A stretch of 64,000 nt of DNA from Octopus sinensis (Eukaryota), in contig NC_043006.1 of the NCBI RefSeq assembly GCF_006345805.1, positions 50,282,001 to 50,346,000 on the forward strand, given 5' to 3'. The notes below the pieces were generated by a model. That model had not been told where the DNA came from. It was given only the letters and a program-made list of their open reading frames with translations, and ran no database searches. A program made the translations under genes and the position numbers. Position 1 is the stretch's first letter. Each line of letters opens with the position of its first letter. Shown here piece after piece: positions 13,661 to 61,292 of this stretch.

Positions 13661-14503
13661 TAGTTTTATTTTTATAGCGTGCTTTCACTTCACTACCGAG
13701 CGCAGCTCTGTGTGCCTTGGGTATGTGCTGTGATTTGTTGTGATGCTCTGATGGTTATTGTATGGAAATTGTTCTGCGTAGGATGTGTGCAGTGCCTGGT
13801 AGTGCAATTTTCTGTATGTTATATGTGTTTGTAAGTCCTGGTGTTTTTGTTATGTATTTGTCTGAATATTTTTTTATCATGCCTAATGCACCCATTATGA
13901 TAGGAATTGTTTCTGTTTTTAGATTCCACATTCTGGTTACCTCTATTTCCAGGTCTTTGTATTTTGAAAGTTTCTCCATTTCTTTTAGAGACACGTTGTC
14001 ATCTGCCGGTATTGATACATCAATTAGAAAGCATCTTTTTCTTCATGATCTCTGACAACTATATCTGGTCTGTTGGCCTTAATTTCTCTATCTGTGTGTA
14101 TCGGCATATCCCAGAGTATGGTTGCTTTCTCGTTTTCTGTGACCTTTTCTGGTGTGTCCCTATACCATCTTTTTTCTGTTGTTATTCCATAATGTTGGCA
14201 TAGCTTCCAGTGTATGTAGGTTCTAACTCTGTCATGTCTGTGAATATATTCCTTCTTAGCCAGGACTGGGCAGCCAGAGATAATATGATTTATTGTTTCT
14301 TGTCCATCTCCACATAATCTGCAGTTACTTGTTATATTTCTTTTCATTACATGTTTTTGGTAATTTCTGGTGGGGAGGCTTTGGTCTTGTGATGCAATTA
14401 AAAATCCCGCTGTCTCTGCTTTGAGTCCTGAGCTTCTCAACCATTGCTGGGATTTTTCTTTGTCTATTTCTTTTGCATTTAGTTTAGTCCAGTATTTACC
14501 ATT
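13660..14503 (-). mobile_element. 3' fragment of an R4/Dong-like non-LTR retrotransposon (CCHC + restriction-like endonuclease)
   Basis: ORFs 14024-14665 and 13755-13994: CRLCGDGQETINHIISGC, RHD, ILWD, RPDIV, EKLSKYKDL, IPIIMGALG; one frameshift; flanked by (TAA)n/(TAC)n. Confidence 0.9.
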
Positions 14504-14527
14504 TATTATTATTATTATTATTATCAC

Positions 14528-14651
<124 letters not shown>

Positions 14652-14885
14652 TCGATATGCCGCAAACCACGCCGCGAACTAAGATTCTCTGTTACTGCTT
14701 ATCTTTGTTAGGATTTCAATTTAGTCAGCCTATAGCTATGTGCAACACACATTGATGAGTCCAGTGTAATTTATATAATCAAATGTAAATAAATATTTAT
14801 ATCTGGCTATTCCAATTGGCCTTCCTAATGAAGTATGAAGATACATATAACATATACAGATGCATGCATACATCCATCCATATGA

Positions 14886-29777: not shown

Positions 29778-31415
29778 TTACTGGAAAATAGCGAACGTAA
29801 TAAATACGACGCTAATGTATAGCTTCACCGCGTATGTACTAGCAAAAATGAAGAAGAAAGAGGGAAGAAGGGAGAGGAGGGAAAGAGAGTAGGGGTGAAA
29901 GGATGAAGGACTGAAGAGAAGTAGGGGTCGGGGGGAGGTTAGATGAGGAGGGGGGATAGGGGGTTTAGATGAGGAGGGGGGAGAGTTGAAACCAAATGGC
30001 GTAAAAGAGCGAAGAGAGAAAATTAATTCCTGTTCACGGCGCAAACGAGAATCCGGATGGCCTCTGTGCAAGGACAAACCGAACACAAACAGGTGTTGCA
30101 AGGCGTGACCGGTGGAGCGGAAATGGCGTGAGACTGGTGTGTCGTTGGCAAGGCGGATGTCACGGAGGTGTTCCGCGAACCGGTCGGCCAAGCGGCGTCC
30201 CGTTTGTCCGATGTACAGGGAATGGCAGAGAGAGCAAGAGATGCAATAGATGATATTGCTGGAGGTGCAGGTGAAGGAGTTGATGATGCGATAGGGTCGA
30301 TGATGGGTGCCAGTGAGGAGGGTGGTGTTGGAGAGGTATGGGCAAGTGCGGCAACGTGGGCGGGAGCAGGGGAACGAGCCAGGTTGGGAGGTAGGGTCAG
30401 GGAAGGAGCTGTGGACCAAAAGGTCTCGTAGGTTATGGGCTCGTTTGAAGGAGGGGAGGGGTCGGTTAGGGAAGAGGTGTGAAGTGGACGGGTAGGACTG
30501 GAGATGCCGGAAAGCTCGAAGAATGGTGCGTTGGAGAGGTAGGGTCGTGGGGTGGCAAGTGAGGGGAAAAGGGAGGCGGGAGACTACAGGGCGGGTTCGG
30601 GGGGAGAGAGCAGATGCACGGTCTACGGAATGTACTCTGGCAAGGGCGGTGTGGATAGTGGGGAGGGGGTATCCACGTAGGATGAAGTGGTGAGCCATGC
30701 GTTGAGACTGAGTCTCAAAGTCATGGTCGTCACTACAGAGCCTACGTAGACGGATGAATTGGGAATAGGGGATGGAAAGCTTGGTGTGTTTTGGGTGGGA
30801 GGAAGAGAAGTTTAGGTATGAGTGTGAGTCTGTGTGTTTGTAGTGAATGGAGGTGGTAAGAGTGGAGTGATGAATGCTGACCGAAATGTCGAGGAAGGAG
30901 ACAGAGGTGTTGGAGATAGTGGAGGTGAAGTGGACGGCTGGATGGAAGGATTGAACAAAAGAGAAGAAGGAATCTAGATGTTCACGGGAGAGTGAGGTGG
31001 CACCGATAATGTCGTCAATGTAACAACCGTATAGTTCAGGAGTGGGACCAGTGAAATTAGAGAATATTTGGGCCTCAACATAGCCAACGAACAGGTTCGC
31101 ATAGTTGGGGCCCATTCGCGTTCCCATGGCCACTCCCGAGAACTGTTGGTAGAACTCGCCCGCGAACGAGAAGCAGTTGAGAGTAAGGACAAGTTCGGCC
31201 AGACGAATGAGTGTGGAGGTGTCAGGTTCAGGGTTGGGGCGGAGGTCGAGAAAGTGTTGAAGTGCCCGCAGTCCTTCGTGGTGAGGGATGACGGTATAGA
31301 GGCTCTGGATGTCCATAGTAAAAAGGATTTTGGAGGAGCCGGGAGGAAAGGAGAAAGAGTTGAAAATCCGGAGAGCATGGTTGGTATCGTGGATGTGGGA
31401 GGGAAGAGACGCCAC
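29778..31415 (-). CDS. PLE reverse transcriptase + GIY-YIG endonuclease (partial ORF)
   Basis: TMDIQSLYT, GVAMGTRMGPNYANLFVG, YIDD, FLDI, and IIYCISC..LYIGQTGRRLADRFAEH; the C-terminal tail is probably read-through into the UTR. Confidence 0.88.
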   Translation of the reverse strand: MASLPSHIHDTNHALRIFNSFSFPPGSSKILFTMDIQSLYTVIPHHEGLRALQHFLDLRPNPEPDTSTLIRLAELVLTLNCFSFAGEFYQQFSGVAMGTRMGPNYANLFVGYVEAQIFSNFTGPTPELYGCYIDDIIGATSLSREHLDSFFSFVQSFHPAVHFTSTISNTSVSFLDISVSIHHSTLTTSIHYKHTDSHSYLNFSSSHPKHTKLSIPYSQFIRLRRLCSDDHDFETQSQRMAHHFILRGYPLPTIHTALARVHSVDRASALSPRTRPVVSRLPFPLTCHPTTLPLQRTILRAFRHLQSYPSTSHLFPNRPLPSFKRAHNLRDLLVHSSFPDPTSQPGSFPCSRPRCRTCPYLSNTTLLTGTHHRPYRIINSFTCTSSNIIYCISCSLCHSLYIGQTGRRLADRFAEHLRDIRLANDTPVSRHFRSTGHALQHLFVFGLSLHRGHPDSRLRREQELIFSLRSFTPFGFNSPPSSSKPPIPPPHLTSPRPLLLFSPSSFHPYSLSLLSLLPSFFFIFASTYAVKLYISVVFITFAIFQ

Positions 31416-31640
31416 TAGGGGAGCAAGGACACGGTCGAAGTATTTAGAGATGAGCTCCGTGGGGCAGTTACGGGCGGAGACGATGGGGCAGCCAGGGTTG
31501 TTGAGTTTGTGGATTTTGGGGAGGAGGTAAATGGTGGGGGTACGTGGGTTCGCACAATTAGGTTGGATGCGGTGTGGGGGAGACGGGAGGACGAGATGAG
31601 GTCGTGGACAGTAGAGGATACCGTCTGTTGGTAGCTACGT
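29778..31640 (-). mobile_element. 5'-truncated Penelope-like retroelement (Neptune-like)
   Basis: LPKIHK motif upstream and in frame with the 545-aa ORF; Cys-rich linker PCSRPRCRTC between RT and endonuclease. Confidence 0.93.
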
Positions 31641-32459: not shown

Positions 32460-32963
32460 TATAAACTTGGAGAAGAGAAATAACGCGTGCGTTCGGTCAT
32501 ATGTAATATTATAAATAAATAAAATATATGCATATATACATACATATATGTACATACTTACATCTACATGTATATATACATGCATATATATACATATATA
32601 CATGAGTACAGGACACCACAAATATACGTAGAACACAACGAGAGACGAGAACATAAAATCAAACAAGGAAACGGACTTTTTTTAAACAACGAAAAAACAG
32701 AGTACAGGACAAACAATACAAGGAAAATTCCCCTTCATCAGTTGTCCCTGGTTCGACTCAAAGTGTGTTTCGAAGGTAAGGACAGAACACAGTCGAAGCA
32801 GTCCTTCCTGCGGAAGGAATTAAATAAAATTTTTTGCAGAGGGGTAAGACAAGTGACAAAGACAGGACGTAAAAGCAATACAAATGAAGAAAAAACAATA
32901 CAAATGAAGAAAAAACAGTACAATAAAGAAACAGGACAGGAAACAGACAATAAGGGCTTTCTT

Positions 32964-33044
<81 letters not shown>

Positions 33045-33580
33045 ATATATATATAAACTTGGAGAAGAGAAATAACGCGTGCGTTCGGTCATATAGTAAT
33101 ATAATAAATTTTTGCCTGGACGGTGCAAAAATTAGTTAGAACACATGTGAAAAATCGGCTTACGAAGGACAGAAGTCGATCAATACTTGTTGAAGGACGA
33201 AGCTGAAAGAAAGTTTTAGTAACCCTCTGGTCAGGAGGAGGAGGAGGAGAGAGAGAGAGACGGAGGGGAAGAAACCAGAAAGGGTGAAAAATAAAGAAAG
33301 TTTTAGCAACCCTCTGGTCAGGAGGGGGAGGAGGAGGAGAGAGAGAGAGAGAGAGAGGGGAAGAAACCAGAAAGGGTGAAAAATAAGAAGGAGAGAGACA
33401 AGTAGAGAGAAAGACAGACAGACAGGGAGGAAAGTTCAAAGAGTGATGATTCAAATAAAAACTTGGAGAAGAGAAATAACGCGTGCGTTCGGTCATATAG
33501 TAATATAATAAATAAATAAAATATATGCATATATACATACATATATGTACATACTTACATCTACATGTATATATACATGC

Positions 33581-33615
<35 letters not shown>

Positions 33616-33785
33616 TATATGAGTACAGGACACCACAAATAAACGTAAAACACAACGAGAGATGAGAACATAAAATCAAACAAGGAAACGGACTTTTTTT
33701 AAAACAACGAAAAAACAGAGTACAGGACAAACAATACAAGGAAAATTCCCCTTCATCAGCTGTCCCTGGTTCGACTCAAAGTGTG
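32460..33785 (-). mobile_element. Non-coding partial-tandem element with about 300-bp direct repeats and a permuted HHR motif
   Basis: 32463-32767 is repeated at 33459-33784; a third partial copy at 33054-33108; related to 52765-53190 and 59782-60935. Confidence 0.75.
32730..32791 (-). ncRNA. Putative non-circularly permuted hammerhead ribozyme
   Basis: Minus strand: TGTGT T CTGTCCTT A CCTTC GAAACACA..AGGGACAA CTGATGA AGGGG. Confidence 0.6.
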
Positions 33786-36321: not shown

Positions 36322-36536
36322 ATAGGTACAGGACGTTACAAAACGTAAACAACATGAAATACGAAGACGGGTATGCGAACAACGAGAGAAACAAATGGAA
36401 AACAAGACAAGTAACATAAAGAACGATCCTTCATCAGTTGTCGGCTGTCCAACTACTCCTCATTTCGAGCAATTAACGACAAGTTTGCTTCTGTATTTCA
36501 TGTTGCTTACGATTTCGTGACATCCTGTACCTATAT
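36322..36536 (-). mobile_element. Short inverted-repeat element with a truncated permuted HHR
   Basis: ataggtacaggacgttacaaaacgtaa.caacatgaaatac is inverted at 36493-36534; minus strand TTGTCG..GCTC GAAATGAG..CGACAA CTGATGA AGG. Confidence 0.6.
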
Positions 36537-52676: not shown

Positions 52677-52707
<31 letters not shown>

Positions 52708-52764
52708 ATATATTCATACATATATATATATATATAGATATAGATATATATATAACATAATATA

Positions 52765-53190
52765 TAAATATATGCATATAAACATAGATATATGTACATA
52801 CCTACATATATATGTATATATAAATGCATATATGGGTACAGGACATCAAAAACGTAGACACAATGAGAAACGAAAACATAAAAACAAAAACATAGAAAAC
52901 GAACTTTTTTTCGAACAAAAAACAAACAAACAGAGAAACGAGACAGGGAACATAAAGAACATTCCCCTTCATCAGTTGTCCCCTGTTTCATCGACTTCGC
53001 GTTACGAAGGTAAGGACAAGATGAGACTTCGTTAAAACAGTCCTTCCCGCAAAGCAAATTAAATAAAATTTGGGATTTTTTTGCGGAGGATGAAAGCCCT
53101 CACCGCTTGTTTTTATTGTCATGTTCTCAGTGTCCTGTTTTTGTTACGACTTTCACCCTCCGCAAAAATTCCCAAATTTTATTTAATTTA
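52765..53190 (-). mobile_element. Single repeat of the permuted-HHR family with an inverted 5' end
   Basis: Homologous to 32520-32850; 53056-53096 is inverted at 53150-53189; decayed HHR at 52964-53026. Confidence 0.7.
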
Positions 53191-53395: not shown

Positions 53396-54995
53396 GGCCC
53401 TGATAGATTCCCCGCTAGTCTACTGAAGGAATGTAGACACCAACTTGCAGTCCCTCTGACCAACCTCTGGAGAAATTCGTTAGACGCAGGTTATATACCG
53501 AAACAGTTTCTATTCCAGTCAGTCATCCCGGTTTTCAAACAGGGAAACAGATCCCTCGCACTCAACTATCGCCCAATCTCACTCACCTCCACCATCATTA
53601 AAGTGTTTGAAAGTGTTAAGATCAAGGATAGCTGACTTCCTGGAGACCCACAAACTCCTAAATGCAAATCAGCATGGCTTTCGCTGTGGCAGGGACTGTC
53701 TAACACAGCTCTTACAACACATTGAAATGTACTCAAAGCCTTGGGAACAGGTTCGAACTCTGATGTCATATATCTTGACTTCAGTAAAGCATTCGAGAGG
53801 GTAGACCATAATATCCTACTCTCAAAATTGGCAAATGTTGGAATCCGTGGAAAAGTTCTACACTGGATTAAGTATTTTCTGGCGAATAGAACACAACATG
53901 TTGTAGTTGACGGAGTCCACTCAAGCCCAGCAAAAGTCAGTAGCGGTGTCCCCAAGGGGACTATCTTGGATCCGCTACTCTTCATAATTTACATAAACGA
54001 CCTTTCCAGTGTCGTACATTACTGCAAAGTGAAAATATTTGCTGATGACACTAAGCTCCAGCAAATCGTCAATGAAGAAGCAGACCGAACTCAACTCCAG
54101 TCTGATCTATATGCTGTGAGTCAATGGGCAGACAGAAACAAAATGCAATTGAACGAGGGAAAATTTGAGCTGATGCATTTTGGAAGAAATTCCTCACTAA
54201 AACAGCCATACTCTCTCCTTCAGGGGAACCGCTCACAGCCTCTAACAATATCAGAGACCTGGTGTAATTGTTGATGACGATCTCAGTTGGAGTGCACACA
54301 TCAACAAGAAGGTCGATATAGCTCGTAGGATGAGTTCCTGGATCTTAAGAACTTTCCGGTCCAGAGAACAAGGTGTCATCATACCACTTTTCTCCTCCTT
54401 TGTACGGCCATACCTCGAATACTGCTGCCCACTGTGGTCTCCTCATACAAGACAAAACATCTCGAGGATTGAATCACCCCAGAGGGCACTCACTAAACGA
54501 ATTGAAGGCATGGCTGCTCTCGATTGTTGGGATCGCCTTAAAGCCTTGAAACTCTACTCTCTCCAGCGTCGCCGTGAGCGGTACATCATTTGTACGATGT
54601 GGAGAATATACCGCCAACTTTGCCTGAACATTAGCTTCAAGGTTCACCCAAGACTGGGACCACGGGCCATACGTTCCCTGCCCAATTCAAGATCACAGCA
54701 TACATGTACACTGCAACATTATTTCTTTTCCTCAACAGGCCCTGCCCTATTCAACATTGTCCCGAAAGAGATCAAAGTGGAAAAGGATCCCATCAACTTT
54801 AAACGGAGTTTGGATAGATTCCTTCAAAGAATACCAGATAAGCCACCCATAATTGGATACAACTCACCCAACAAAAACTCACTACTTGAATGGACCATAA
54901 ACAAAACTTGACTTAGGCAGGATTCAAATAATCCTATCAGGTGGTGCTATTAAGTTAGACATGGCCTGGACCAATCTTCGGTCGAAACATATCTA

Positions 54996-58700: not shown

Positions 58701-59861
58701 CCGCTTTTCTTCCGTCAACCTATACATAACTGCACCTTCCATTTTTTTTTGTTTTTGTACTGCTTAAAGGCATGTTTCTTTCCTGCCAAGCTTACTGTTT
58801 AAACCATGTTTGTGTCCTCCCAGTCAACAGCCTTATCATTACTGGTACTTCAAACTCTTCGGTTGCATATTTGTGTGTATAAAATCGTTTTTCTTTGGAA
58901 TAGAAAGTCTATCTTTATTTCTTCTTTTGCTGGTGTCTCAAATTTAAGTTAAATCGGTGTTTCTCAAAGAGGAGGCCTATGGGACGGTCAGACAAGTTGT
59001 TTTGAGAAAATTTGGTTTAAATGTTTGACAATTTCTTTTATTCCTTTACTTGCTTCTCTCACTGGGTAGTAACCATGTCACTGGGTATTAATCATGTTAT
59101 GGCACTGCCTTGAAGAGTTTGGTCAATGAAACCCACAAAGGTTGTGCCGTAAAACACATATTTAAAAAAAAAATTCTGATAAATATTCTATCGATACGGT
59201 TATTCAAAACTGCAAGTTTACAATGATGTTAACAAAGCAACAGTAGTCTTAAGCGCCGATACATAAACGCAAGCAGTGACGCGTGGGCGCACGTGCACAC
59301 ACACATCCGATGGGATTCTGCATAGATTCTGTCTACATAATTCACTGAACCTAAAGACACTTTGTTGCGTTGCGAACTATATAAAAGAAAGAGTTTTTGA
59401 AGTTTTGAGCAGAGTTCTTTGTCAGAAAGAAGAGAAGGCAAATTCCAAAGGAGAGGAAATCACCAACAGCATGTGTGTGGTTACATATGTATATACATAC
59501 TCGCACACACAAGCCGGATGGTCATGATTAAGATACATTTGTTCCTAGATCTGTTCAATCAAGTTAAAGTAAGGTCTATAAGTTTTTATATAACACGAAA
59601 ATGTTGTCACTGCACTGCAGAAAAAAAAGCTGATCCCGAAAGAACTGACCCCATTGCAACAAGACATATTTTTAAATGGCAATTGAAATTCTTTCACTAA
59701 AGGGAGAACTTGAATATGTGCTCGTCTGCTTCTTCTACCATAATGTTTTTCCTTTCTTCTATTATTTATTTTTAAGACATCTTTCCGCGAAAATCAAATT
59801 AAATAAAATTTGAGATTTTTTTGCGGAGGGGTAAAAATGGTAACAAAAATTTTCATTGAAG

Positions 59862-59923
59862 TCATGTATCGCCTTGACCTTCGAAACGTGGAGTAGATGA
59901 AATTAAGGCGACTGAAGAAGGGG
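59862..59923 (+). ncRNA. Putative non-circularly permuted hammerhead ribozyme
   Basis: TCATGT A TCGCCTT GA CCTTC GAAACGTGG..AAGGCGA CTGAAGA AGGGG. Confidence 0.65.
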
Positions 59924-60657
59924 AATGTTCCTTGTTTTGTATGTCCTGTACTCTATTTTTTCGTTGTTTTAAAAAATGTCCATTTCCTTGGCTTTGTGTT
60001 TATGTCTTCGTTTCTCATTGTGTTCGACGTTTTTTTGGTGTCCTGTACCCATATATGCATGTATATATACATGTAGAGGTAGGTACGTATATATATGTAT
60101 GTATATATGCATATGTTTTATTTATTTATTAATTTATCATATGACGGAACGCACGCATCCATTTCTAAGTAAGATTGTTCTTAATATTAATAATGACGCG
60201 CACTCTTAACCTTTCTCTCCCCTCCCTTTCTCAGCCTTCATTCTTTTGGCTTTCCTTTTCTTCTACCTTACTGTCTCTCCCTCTCTCTCTCATTCTTCAT
60301 TCTTTTCTCTACAACCATTCCCTTTTTTTCTCTCCCTTTCTTTTACTCCTCCTCCTCCCTCCCGTCGCGGTCACGTGATGAGATGGCTATTTCTGTCTTT
60401 CTTCTCCTGGCCTCCTTTAAGTAGAGACGGTAAAATCTATTGCTCTCTGCTGTTCTCAAAGAATAGCGTTCGTAAAATTTTTTTATCTCGTTTGGCTTAA
60501 CAGCCCTTCTTGTTTGTGTTACTATTATTCTCCGTGTCCTGTCTTTTACTGTTTATATTTTGTACTGTCGTTACTGTCCTGTTTTTGTTACCATTTTTAC
60601 CCCTCCTCAAAAAATTTATTTAATTTCATTTTCGCGGGAAGGAAATTTTCATTGAAG

Positions 60658-60719
60658 TCATGTATCGCCTTGACCTTCGAAACGTGGAGTAGATGAAATT
60701 AAGGCGACTGAAGAAGGGG
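60658..60719 (+). ncRNA. Putative non-circularly permuted hammerhead ribozyme, second copy
   Basis: Identical to 59862-59923. Confidence 0.65.
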
Positions 60720-60932
60720 AATTTTCCTTGTTTTGTATGTCCTGTAGTCTATTTTTTCGTTGTTTTAAAAAAATGTCTATTTCCTTGGTTTTGTATTTAT
60801 GTTTTCGTTACTCATTGTCTTCGACGTTTTTTTGGTGTCCTGTACCCATATATGCATGTATATATACATGTAAAGGTAGGTACGTGCATATATGTATGTA
60901 TATATGCATATATTTTATTTTATTTATTAATT

Positions 60933-60975
<43 letters not shown>

Positions 60976-61053
60976 TATATATATATTGATAAAAATGGTA
61001 AGACAACAAAGAATGAAAGAGACCTCCATATTATGTAAATAGAGGAATTTATC

Positions 61054-61270
61054 TGTAAATGTAATATGTGACAATTATTCGGTAGCCATGATAAAACTCC
61101 GAGTTTCGGATGCCGGGGTGGAAATCCACACCGACATCTCTTCAGTTATCCGGCCATTTTTTCCTATGGCCGAATAACTGAAGATATGGGCGGCGTGGAT
61201 TTCCATCTCGGCATCCGAAACTCGGAGTTTTATCATGGCTACCGAATAATTGTCACGTATTACATTTACA
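61054..61270. repeat. Near-perfect palindrome (about 105-bp arms) with a type I HHR on each strand
   Basis: 61054-61157 vs 61166-61270; minus HHR 61090-61150, plus HHR 61174-61234. Confidence 0.85.
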
Positions 61271-61292
61271 TATATATATATATATATTATAT

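Follow-up and report, generated by a model that had tools for sequence, protein, structure and literature searches.

Hammerhead ribozymes in which the cleavage site (block S) precedes GAAA (block G) and CUGANGA (block C) were named type SGC by Eckert et al. (2023), who showed that they cleave in vitro (PMC10085705). In the accessible part of that report, type SGC is found only in metatranscriptome or metagenome contigs, and CUGAnGA and the stem II strand are assumed never to be more than 1-2 nt apart. The minimal type I hammerheads of PLE terminal repeats have the canonical C-G-S order, a tiny stem III, and a dependence on dimers (Cervera and de la Pena, 2014; PMC4209133). Animal non-LTR retrozymes, which have been proposed to be non-autonomous derivatives of PLEs, are non-coding tandem or partial-tandem units of about 170-400 nt with one type I hammerhead per unit, and their circular RNAs have been demonstrated (PMC7229834; bioRxiv 10.64898/2026.07.22.740005). 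PLEs, including the EN-RT-encoding Naiads, form partial tandems and inverted 5' copies, carry tails of 30-40 bp, and insert at (TA)n, a target that Naiads prefer; according to the accessible part of the same source, Naiads lack canonical hammerheads, some are flagged 'HHR_half_core', and those of cephalopods have long been inactive (PMC8557442). For a Poseidon PLE, such tails have been explained by internal initiation of reverse transcription (PMC11167929).

We analyzed a non-coding repeated unit in a window of 64,000 nucleotides of Octopus sinensis DNA (contig NC_043006.1) and compared it with the accessible descriptions of these systems. Its ribozyme motif resembles type SGC (HRIMA-1 and a variant) in its S-G-C order, its full core and multiple pseudoknots, its 5-bp stem II, its short linker between stems I and II, and an extra helix that joins the distal ends (PMC10085705). 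In type SGC, however, CUGAnGA comes before the 5' strand of stem II and the extra-helix strand, whereas in the unit both strands appear to precede block S and so to split block C; and whereas type SGC comes from environmental contigs, the motif of the unit sits in an animal genome, in a retroelement with thousands of copies. With the retrozymes the unit shares non-coding (partial-)tandem organization and a single hammerhead per unit, but its hammerhead is permuted, it is 796 nt long, and its copies are mostly dispersed and 5'-truncated (PMC7229834; bioRxiv 10.64898/2026.07.22.740005). It is like the minimal PLE hammerheads in its PLE terminal repeats and in the extra nucleotide after A9, but differs from them in block order and in having a stem III of 5-6 bp with an extension (PMC4209133). 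With Naiads it has in common partial tandems that form pLTRs, inverted 5' copies, (TA)n targets, a short tail, and a rewired hammerhead like that at the 3' end of several Naiad consensuses; in contrast to Naiads it encodes nothing, and with the Naiad family of its own genome it shares only the fold (PMC8557442).

A first-pass annotation of the window had described ribozyme-bearing direct repeats 796 nt apart, a short inverted segment at their 5' end, and a unit without an ORF. Our analysis bore out all of these points. The two repeats are 95.2% identical over 293 columns within the window; the inverted segment matches its source, the 60 nt directly before the second repeat, at 83% over 69 columns with one 9-nt gap, and the 9 nt missing from this inner copy are present in most other copies of the family. 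The longest stop-free frame in 59782-60935 has 96 codons. In the first repeat the junction of the 5' inversion has removed the upstream strand of stem II, and only the second repeat carries a complete ribozyme. This locus is thus expected to yield little unit RNA, unless copy 1 can use the strand of copy 2.

Features of the locus in the window (positions are those of the window)
Feature	Positions	Strand	Basis or content
Inverted 5' segment	59781..59849	-	Reverse complement of 60582-60641; PLE-type 5' inversion
Repeat copy 1 (pLTR-like)	59847..60137	+	Repeat alignment, offset 796 from copy 2
Non-coding body, pyrimidine-rich middle, high-copy family sequence	60138..60642	+	Genome matches
Predicted cut-to-cut unit, 796 nt, non-coding	59869..60664	+	Descriptor and unit spacing elsewhere
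Repeat copy 2, ending at the main fixed 3' end of the family	60643..60935	+	Repeat alignment, family loci
(TA)n microsatellite at the 3' junction, likely insertion target	60936..60972	.	Most family 3' ends abut (TA)n; PMC8557442
Ribozyme copy 1	59847..59918	+	Helix-a strand; block S 59862-59875, predicted cut after 59868; block G 59878-59891; stem I 3' strand and CUGAAGA 59905-59918
Ribozyme copy 2, complete	60638..60714	+	All strands present: stem II 5' strand 60638-60642 and 3' strand 60674-60678; helix-a 5' strand about 60644-60652 and 3' strand 60692-60700; block S 60658-60671, predicted cut after 60664; GAAA 60679-60682; stem III 3' strand 60682-60687; stem I 3' strand 60701-60707; CUGAAGA 60708-60714

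Other ribozyme-bearing sequences lie nearby. An inverted pair of canonical-order minimal PLE hammerheads (61047-61277; 87-nt arms, 93%) forms a separate element just downstream. Copies of sister subfamilies that carry the same permuted ribozyme are present on the minus strand at 52695-53071 (subfamily C), 32476-32884 and 33472-33759 (both B), and about 36340-36470 (D).

All parts of a hammerhead core are present in the repeat, in the order cleavage site, GAAA, CUGANGA. A core pattern with G before C gave 8,782 exact matches in the genome (4382 and 4400), compared with 46 (28 and 18) for the reversed control. An Rfam scan of the window returned no family match, and a canonical-order pattern found nothing inside the unit and only the unrelated inverted pair at about 61050-61280; both searches were empty in the unit because its block order is S-G-C. 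A structure descriptor placed H17 at 59868 and 60664, with a stem I of 8 bp and a stem III of 6 bp. These were its only two matches in the window, versus two in 30 Markov-shuffled windows, neither of which had a 5-bp upstream stem II.

We defined subfamilies A-G from 141 distinct instances of the motif. Across the majority sequences of A, B, C, D, E, F, and F2, 69 of the 70 pairs of stems I and III are kept while their letters change, the majority of F being distorted by fixed windows. The cleavage triplet remains NUH (GUA, GUU, GUC, or AUA), and N7 varies. Covariation in stems I and III fixes the register, so the cut is placed after 59868 and 60664, the positions proposed in the first-pass annotation. 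A cut after the GUA at 59895, which we tried first with a type I or type II fold, leaves no stem I, and the covariation favors 59868. Single-strand folding of the motif was unremarkable (z of -1.4 and -0.5), as expected for a pseudoknot. With CUGANGA, GAAA, and NUH in place and stems I, II, and III covarying (stem II by way of an upstream strand), the motif has the composition of a hammerhead, but its block order is none of the circular permutations CGS, GSC, and SCG that define types I, II, and III. That the fold is conserved in the family is virtually certain; that it actively cleaves in the family is quite probable. The earlier description of the unit as retrozyme-like held insofar as it is a non-coding repeat with one hammerhead per unit, but not as regards the type I hammerhead of non-LTR retrozymes. 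We would describe it as a non-autonomous element of PLE type that may work in a retrozyme-like manner with a hammerhead of another type.

The unusual feature of the motif concerns stem II. A segment 5' of block S can form five Watson-Crick pairs with the 3' strand of stem II, and three of the five pairs change on both sides between subfamilies. In an alignment of 40 copies, 92.5% of cells pair; none of 500 shuffles reached this value, and controls in which the segment was slid gave 30%-50%. The alignment holds up to six copies per subfamily, drawn from the 125 5'-complete instances among the 141 (the remainder being 3 unassigned and 13 truncated ones), and its register is wrong in helix a and at the fourth pairs of stems I and III, which were not counted. 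A sequence-free descriptor run over all fetched loci returned 156 distinct S-G-C motifs, including flanking families that are unrelated in sequence and have the same upstream stem II. The short repeat families with this split-core wiring lie in the flanks of loci L008, L017, L024, L094, L154, and L350, and the flanks retrieved for them contained no PLE or RLE match. We conclude that stem II is very probably formed by the upstream strand. Because this partner lies upstream of the cut site, block C is apparently split between A9 and G10.1. Our literature search, which left most subscription journals outside its scope, found neither a precedent for a break at this point nor a description of this wiring.

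Beyond stem III, tandem GA occurs on both strands in 124 of the 156 motifs, which suggests a kink-turn-like bend. In the fold that we infer, stems I and II would lie alongside each other from the catalytic core to a second junction, and the helix that extends stem III would bend back to this second junction at the GA/GA (kink-turn-like) loop. A9 would not be linked to G10.1 in the local fold.

The same wiring can be traced in Naiads. The consensus sequences Naiad_Obim and Naiad_Ovul, three Acropora Naiads, and two further Naiad entries from the accessible supplement of PMC8557442 fit the same four helices, and their downstream strands, parsed by eye, are unable to form stem II. These fits were likewise made by eye, on hits 19-48 of the 62 for one core spelling, and so cover part of the 54 consensuses. 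In the genome that contains the window, the octopus Naiad motif has 307 matches (139 and 168) and its control none. In 15 5'-intact copies of 30, stems I and III are nearly all Watson-Crick and the upstream stem II is mostly so over 6 pairs, and the downstream stem II breaks at pair 3, which is mismatched in 11 of the 15. In these counts the search pattern and filter favor stem I and parts of stem III, and the pattern omitted the upstream stem II strand while the filter demanded a C-rich upstream segment. The end of the Naiad ORF was reached in 4 of 30 motif loci. Beyond one chance neighbor, this Naiad family and the unit show no DNA similarity. The comparison suggests that the unit and the Naiads have a split-core S-G-C hammerhead design in common, as a fold written in different letters.

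An alternative is that the strands of these helices come from two repeats, or meet around a circle, and that cleavage needs a tandem, as in the dimeric hammerheads of PLEs. The loop of one repeat might dock on the base of the following repeat; alternatively, copy 1 might borrow the stem II strand of copy 2, in which case the body of about 730 nt would be an insertion between A9 and G10.1. A monomer would need three mutually crossing sets of helices, minimal PLE hammerheads have been proposed to act as dimers (accessible part of PMC4209133), and the kink-turn register, read by eye, fits Naiad copies cleanly but is shifted in family A. Most genomic copies and the Naiad consensuses nevertheless contain a single motif, the GA on both strands beyond stem III suggests a built-in bend, and type SGC monomers cleave in vitro according to the accessible part of PMC10085705. 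We consider a two-repeat fold, in either variant, to be unlikely.

A second alternative is that the motif is an ordinary type SGC ribozyme, in which stem II is formed by the G run after CUGANGA with one extra nucleotide and the upstream strand is a competing pairing that inhibits cleavage or aids ligation. In the non-coding subfamilies the strand after CUGANGA does offer a G.U-rich stem II (G-C, G.U, and G.U or G-C; 75% paired) in which one pair changes on both sides; G10.1-C11.1 and 3-4 pairs are kept in all of them, and HRIMA-1 has the same one-nucleotide insertion (accessible part of PMC10085705). This strand is also able to fold on itself, and its duplex with the helix-a strand at least matches the upstream one in stability in subfamilies D, F, and F2 (for subfamily B, fixed windows distort the energy of the upstream stem II). 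Against this, at least 4 downstream Watson-Crick pairs are found in none of the 156 motifs, versus at least 5 upstream pairs in 103; an uninterrupted block C with the stem II 5' strand 1-2 nt after CUGAnGA, as in type SGC, is thus not what we observe, and only the weak G.U-rich alternative remains. The downstream strand of Naiads fails at pair 3 or at pair 1, and it is the upstream pairing that has three compensatory changes. An ordinary type SGC fold is, in our judgment, quite unlikely, and we return to the split core with an upstream stem II.

The unit belongs to a large family. First-look searches of the 2.7-Gb genome gave 2791 candidates for the repeat and 2492 for the body; 40 of the latter were scored and yielded 39 other full or near-full matches with 88%-95% identity. 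A 31-nt exact motif near the 3' end had 1183 and 1185 matches and a control of 0. In family A, copies differ from their own majority at a median of 9 of 250 columns. Among the 28 other best-matching loci, which were chosen for a full match to the repeat and tallied by eye, the 5' end varies and most 3' ends abut (TA)n. The 3' end of the family is fixed at about unit position 284-297, with a tail form that ends at 341 in 5 of the 28; the junction between body and repeat is crossed in 25 of 28, the second repeat is reached in 8 of 28, and an inverted 5' piece is present in 5 of 28. One locus holds 2.2 units. Unit spacing is 789-807 nt in other tandem loci of near subfamilies and 585-896 nt across five subfamilies. 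Loci L290 and L291, which are 65 kb apart, match each other both in their two differing tandem units and in a GIY-YIG-like fragment upstream, and probably represent a segmental duplication. Contigs from four sequencing runs presumed to be RNA cover the family; strand, ends, and circles are not readable from contigs.

Partial tandems, 5' truncation and inversion, a fixed 3' end, an optional tail, and a microsatellite target together make up PLE anatomy, and the stretch is almost certainly a member of a mobile non-autonomous family. The first-pass annotation had proposed a non-autonomous element mobilized by a PLE reverse transcriptase. The thousands of dispersed copies and their PLE-type non-autonomous anatomy agree with this proposal; for the enzyme itself, a Naiad-type reverse transcriptase is a reasonable candidate that we favor by a modest measure. 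Two points speak against it: the Naiad family of this genome has no DNA similarity to the unit beyond one chance neighbor, and cephalopod Naiads reportedly ceased to be active long ago, whereas copies of family A stand at a median of 9 differences in 250 columns from their majority.

We then considered whether the 5' ends of the copies carry a trace of cleavage. Ninety copies were picked by a motif 158 nt downstream, and the counts of their ends were reconciled by eye. About 19 independent 5' ends fall between -9 and +16 of G12, an interval of 26 nt that extends from the cut (at +14) to where stem III ends; the 64 nt directly upstream hold at most 3, and the 147 nt downstream up to 33 (binomial p of 3e-8 versus upstream and 1e-4 versus the downstream 147 nt). 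Most of these ends lie 6-23 nt 3' of the cut, with peaks near +7 and -8 relative to G12 and not at the cut itself. Among 92 position-ordered copies, 18 had an apparent 5' end within 17 nt of G12, and 4 of the 18 were deletions or a false match. An all-against-all BLAST estimate of the 5' ends suffered from microsatellite flanks that the copies have in common, and we relied on it only in combination with the motif-picked count. The pile-up just 3' of the cut fits templates that begin at the cut, and the two peaks fit stalling of the reverse transcriptase at helices or at the knot as well.

Of the copies long enough to include the motif, about 70% extend past the cut site, so most templates must have been continuous there, whether as a circle, as an uncut tandem, or through a template jump; the copy in the window itself spans two cut sites. 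The two repeats of the window depart from the majority sequence of the family at 7 and 8 columns and have no private change in common, and this comparison favors no one form of the template. For a circular intermediate we see slightly less than an even chance.

These observations also bear on the possibility that the fold is conserved but no longer catalytic. It would then serve as a structure that binds or stalls the reverse transcriptase, and partial tandems would arise from uncut read-through transcripts. The position of the 5' ends at helix boundaries and the large share of copies that continue past the cut agree with this possibility, as does the poor cleavage of PLE hammerheads in vitro (accessible part of PMC4209133). 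Yet conservation holds for the core nucleotides and for NUH, in contrast to the variable N7 and stems, and the ends drop sharply just 5' of the cut. We regard a fold without catalysis as improbable, and a catalytic split-core hammerhead remains the reading that we prefer.

The first-pass annotation had also called for a search for autonomous PLEs that share the repeat. At the level of DNA this search gave nothing: four RT-coding families showed no similarity to the unit beyond chance adjacency. What it did bring out is the fold common to the unit and Naiad. One rejected candidate is a PLE in the window itself (29778-31634, minus strand), which has a 618-codon frame with PLE RT and GIY-YIG and 27,583 first-look candidates; its family ends in a different motif, a degenerate hammerhead of canonical order followed by (TA)n, and no shared end was found in 30 loci. 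A second PLE family, seen as a GIY-YIG fragment upstream of the motif at locus L146, was adjacent in 1 of 30 loci, which we attribute to chance. An RLE-type LINE at 14.0-14.7 kb of the window had the motif in 0 of 30 loci; this is the 3' end of an element at about 13700-14698 (minus strand) with a short 3' UTR and 53,608 first-look candidates. At 53726-54911 (plus strand), two frames resemble what we take to be the RT region of a CR1/L2-like LINE. The 3' ends of loci L213-L224 and L243-L246 belong to two PLE families that, by eye, apparently have minimal hammerheads of type I in which the 3-8 core pair is altered (A3-U8 and U3-A8).

The remaining alternative, that the locus arose by a single local duplication or is what a deletion left of an autonomous element, would suit the incomplete copy 1 and the low complexity of the body, but it is very improbable given the thousands of dispersed copies of repeat and body, the unit spacings found in five subfamilies, and the lack of any consistent upstream ORF among 90 position-ordered motif loci. 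The first-pass annotation had named these two outcomes as fatal to its proposal, and as far as we tested neither applies, because the RT-coding families examined have no DNA similarity to the unit.

Taken together, the locus is likely to be a partial-tandem, 5'-inverted copy of an element whose S-G-C hammerhead, with its upstream stem II, would be self-cleaving and which would depend on a Naiad-type reverse transcriptase in trans, a reading drawn from genomic sequence. Multimeric transcripts would cleave themselves to a 796-nt unit, which would be copied into (TA)n sites by that Naiad-type PLE enzyme. Reverse transcription would start internally, about 275 nt downstream of the cut for the main 3' end and about 320 nt for the tail form. 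The enzyme would then either stop at the cleaved 5' end or cross a joined cut site (in a circle, in an uncut tandem, or by a template jump), and crossing would produce partial tandems like the copy in the window.

A wider reading, which we offer tentatively and hold to be somewhat less probable than its opposite, is that this is a seventh hammerhead wiring and the missing ribozyme of Naiads from corals to octopuses, one in which the second junction and the kink-turn close a core that is open between A9 and G10.1. The ribozyme would also reclose the satellite RNA, and the non-coding satellites would transpose from a 0.8-kb circle that a Naiad reverse transcriptase reads for more than one round.

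If the wiring is as proposed, a non-circularly permuted hammerhead that is known from anonymous environmental RNA would be placed in an animal genome with a biological context, and the assumption that the CUGAnGA block stays uninterrupted would break. The reports of Naiad PLEs without hammerheads would be explained, and the role of the ribozyme in PLEs would become testable in the Naiad clade. Standard descriptors and Rfam would then be overlooking a whole class of genomic ribozymes and retrozyme-like elements.
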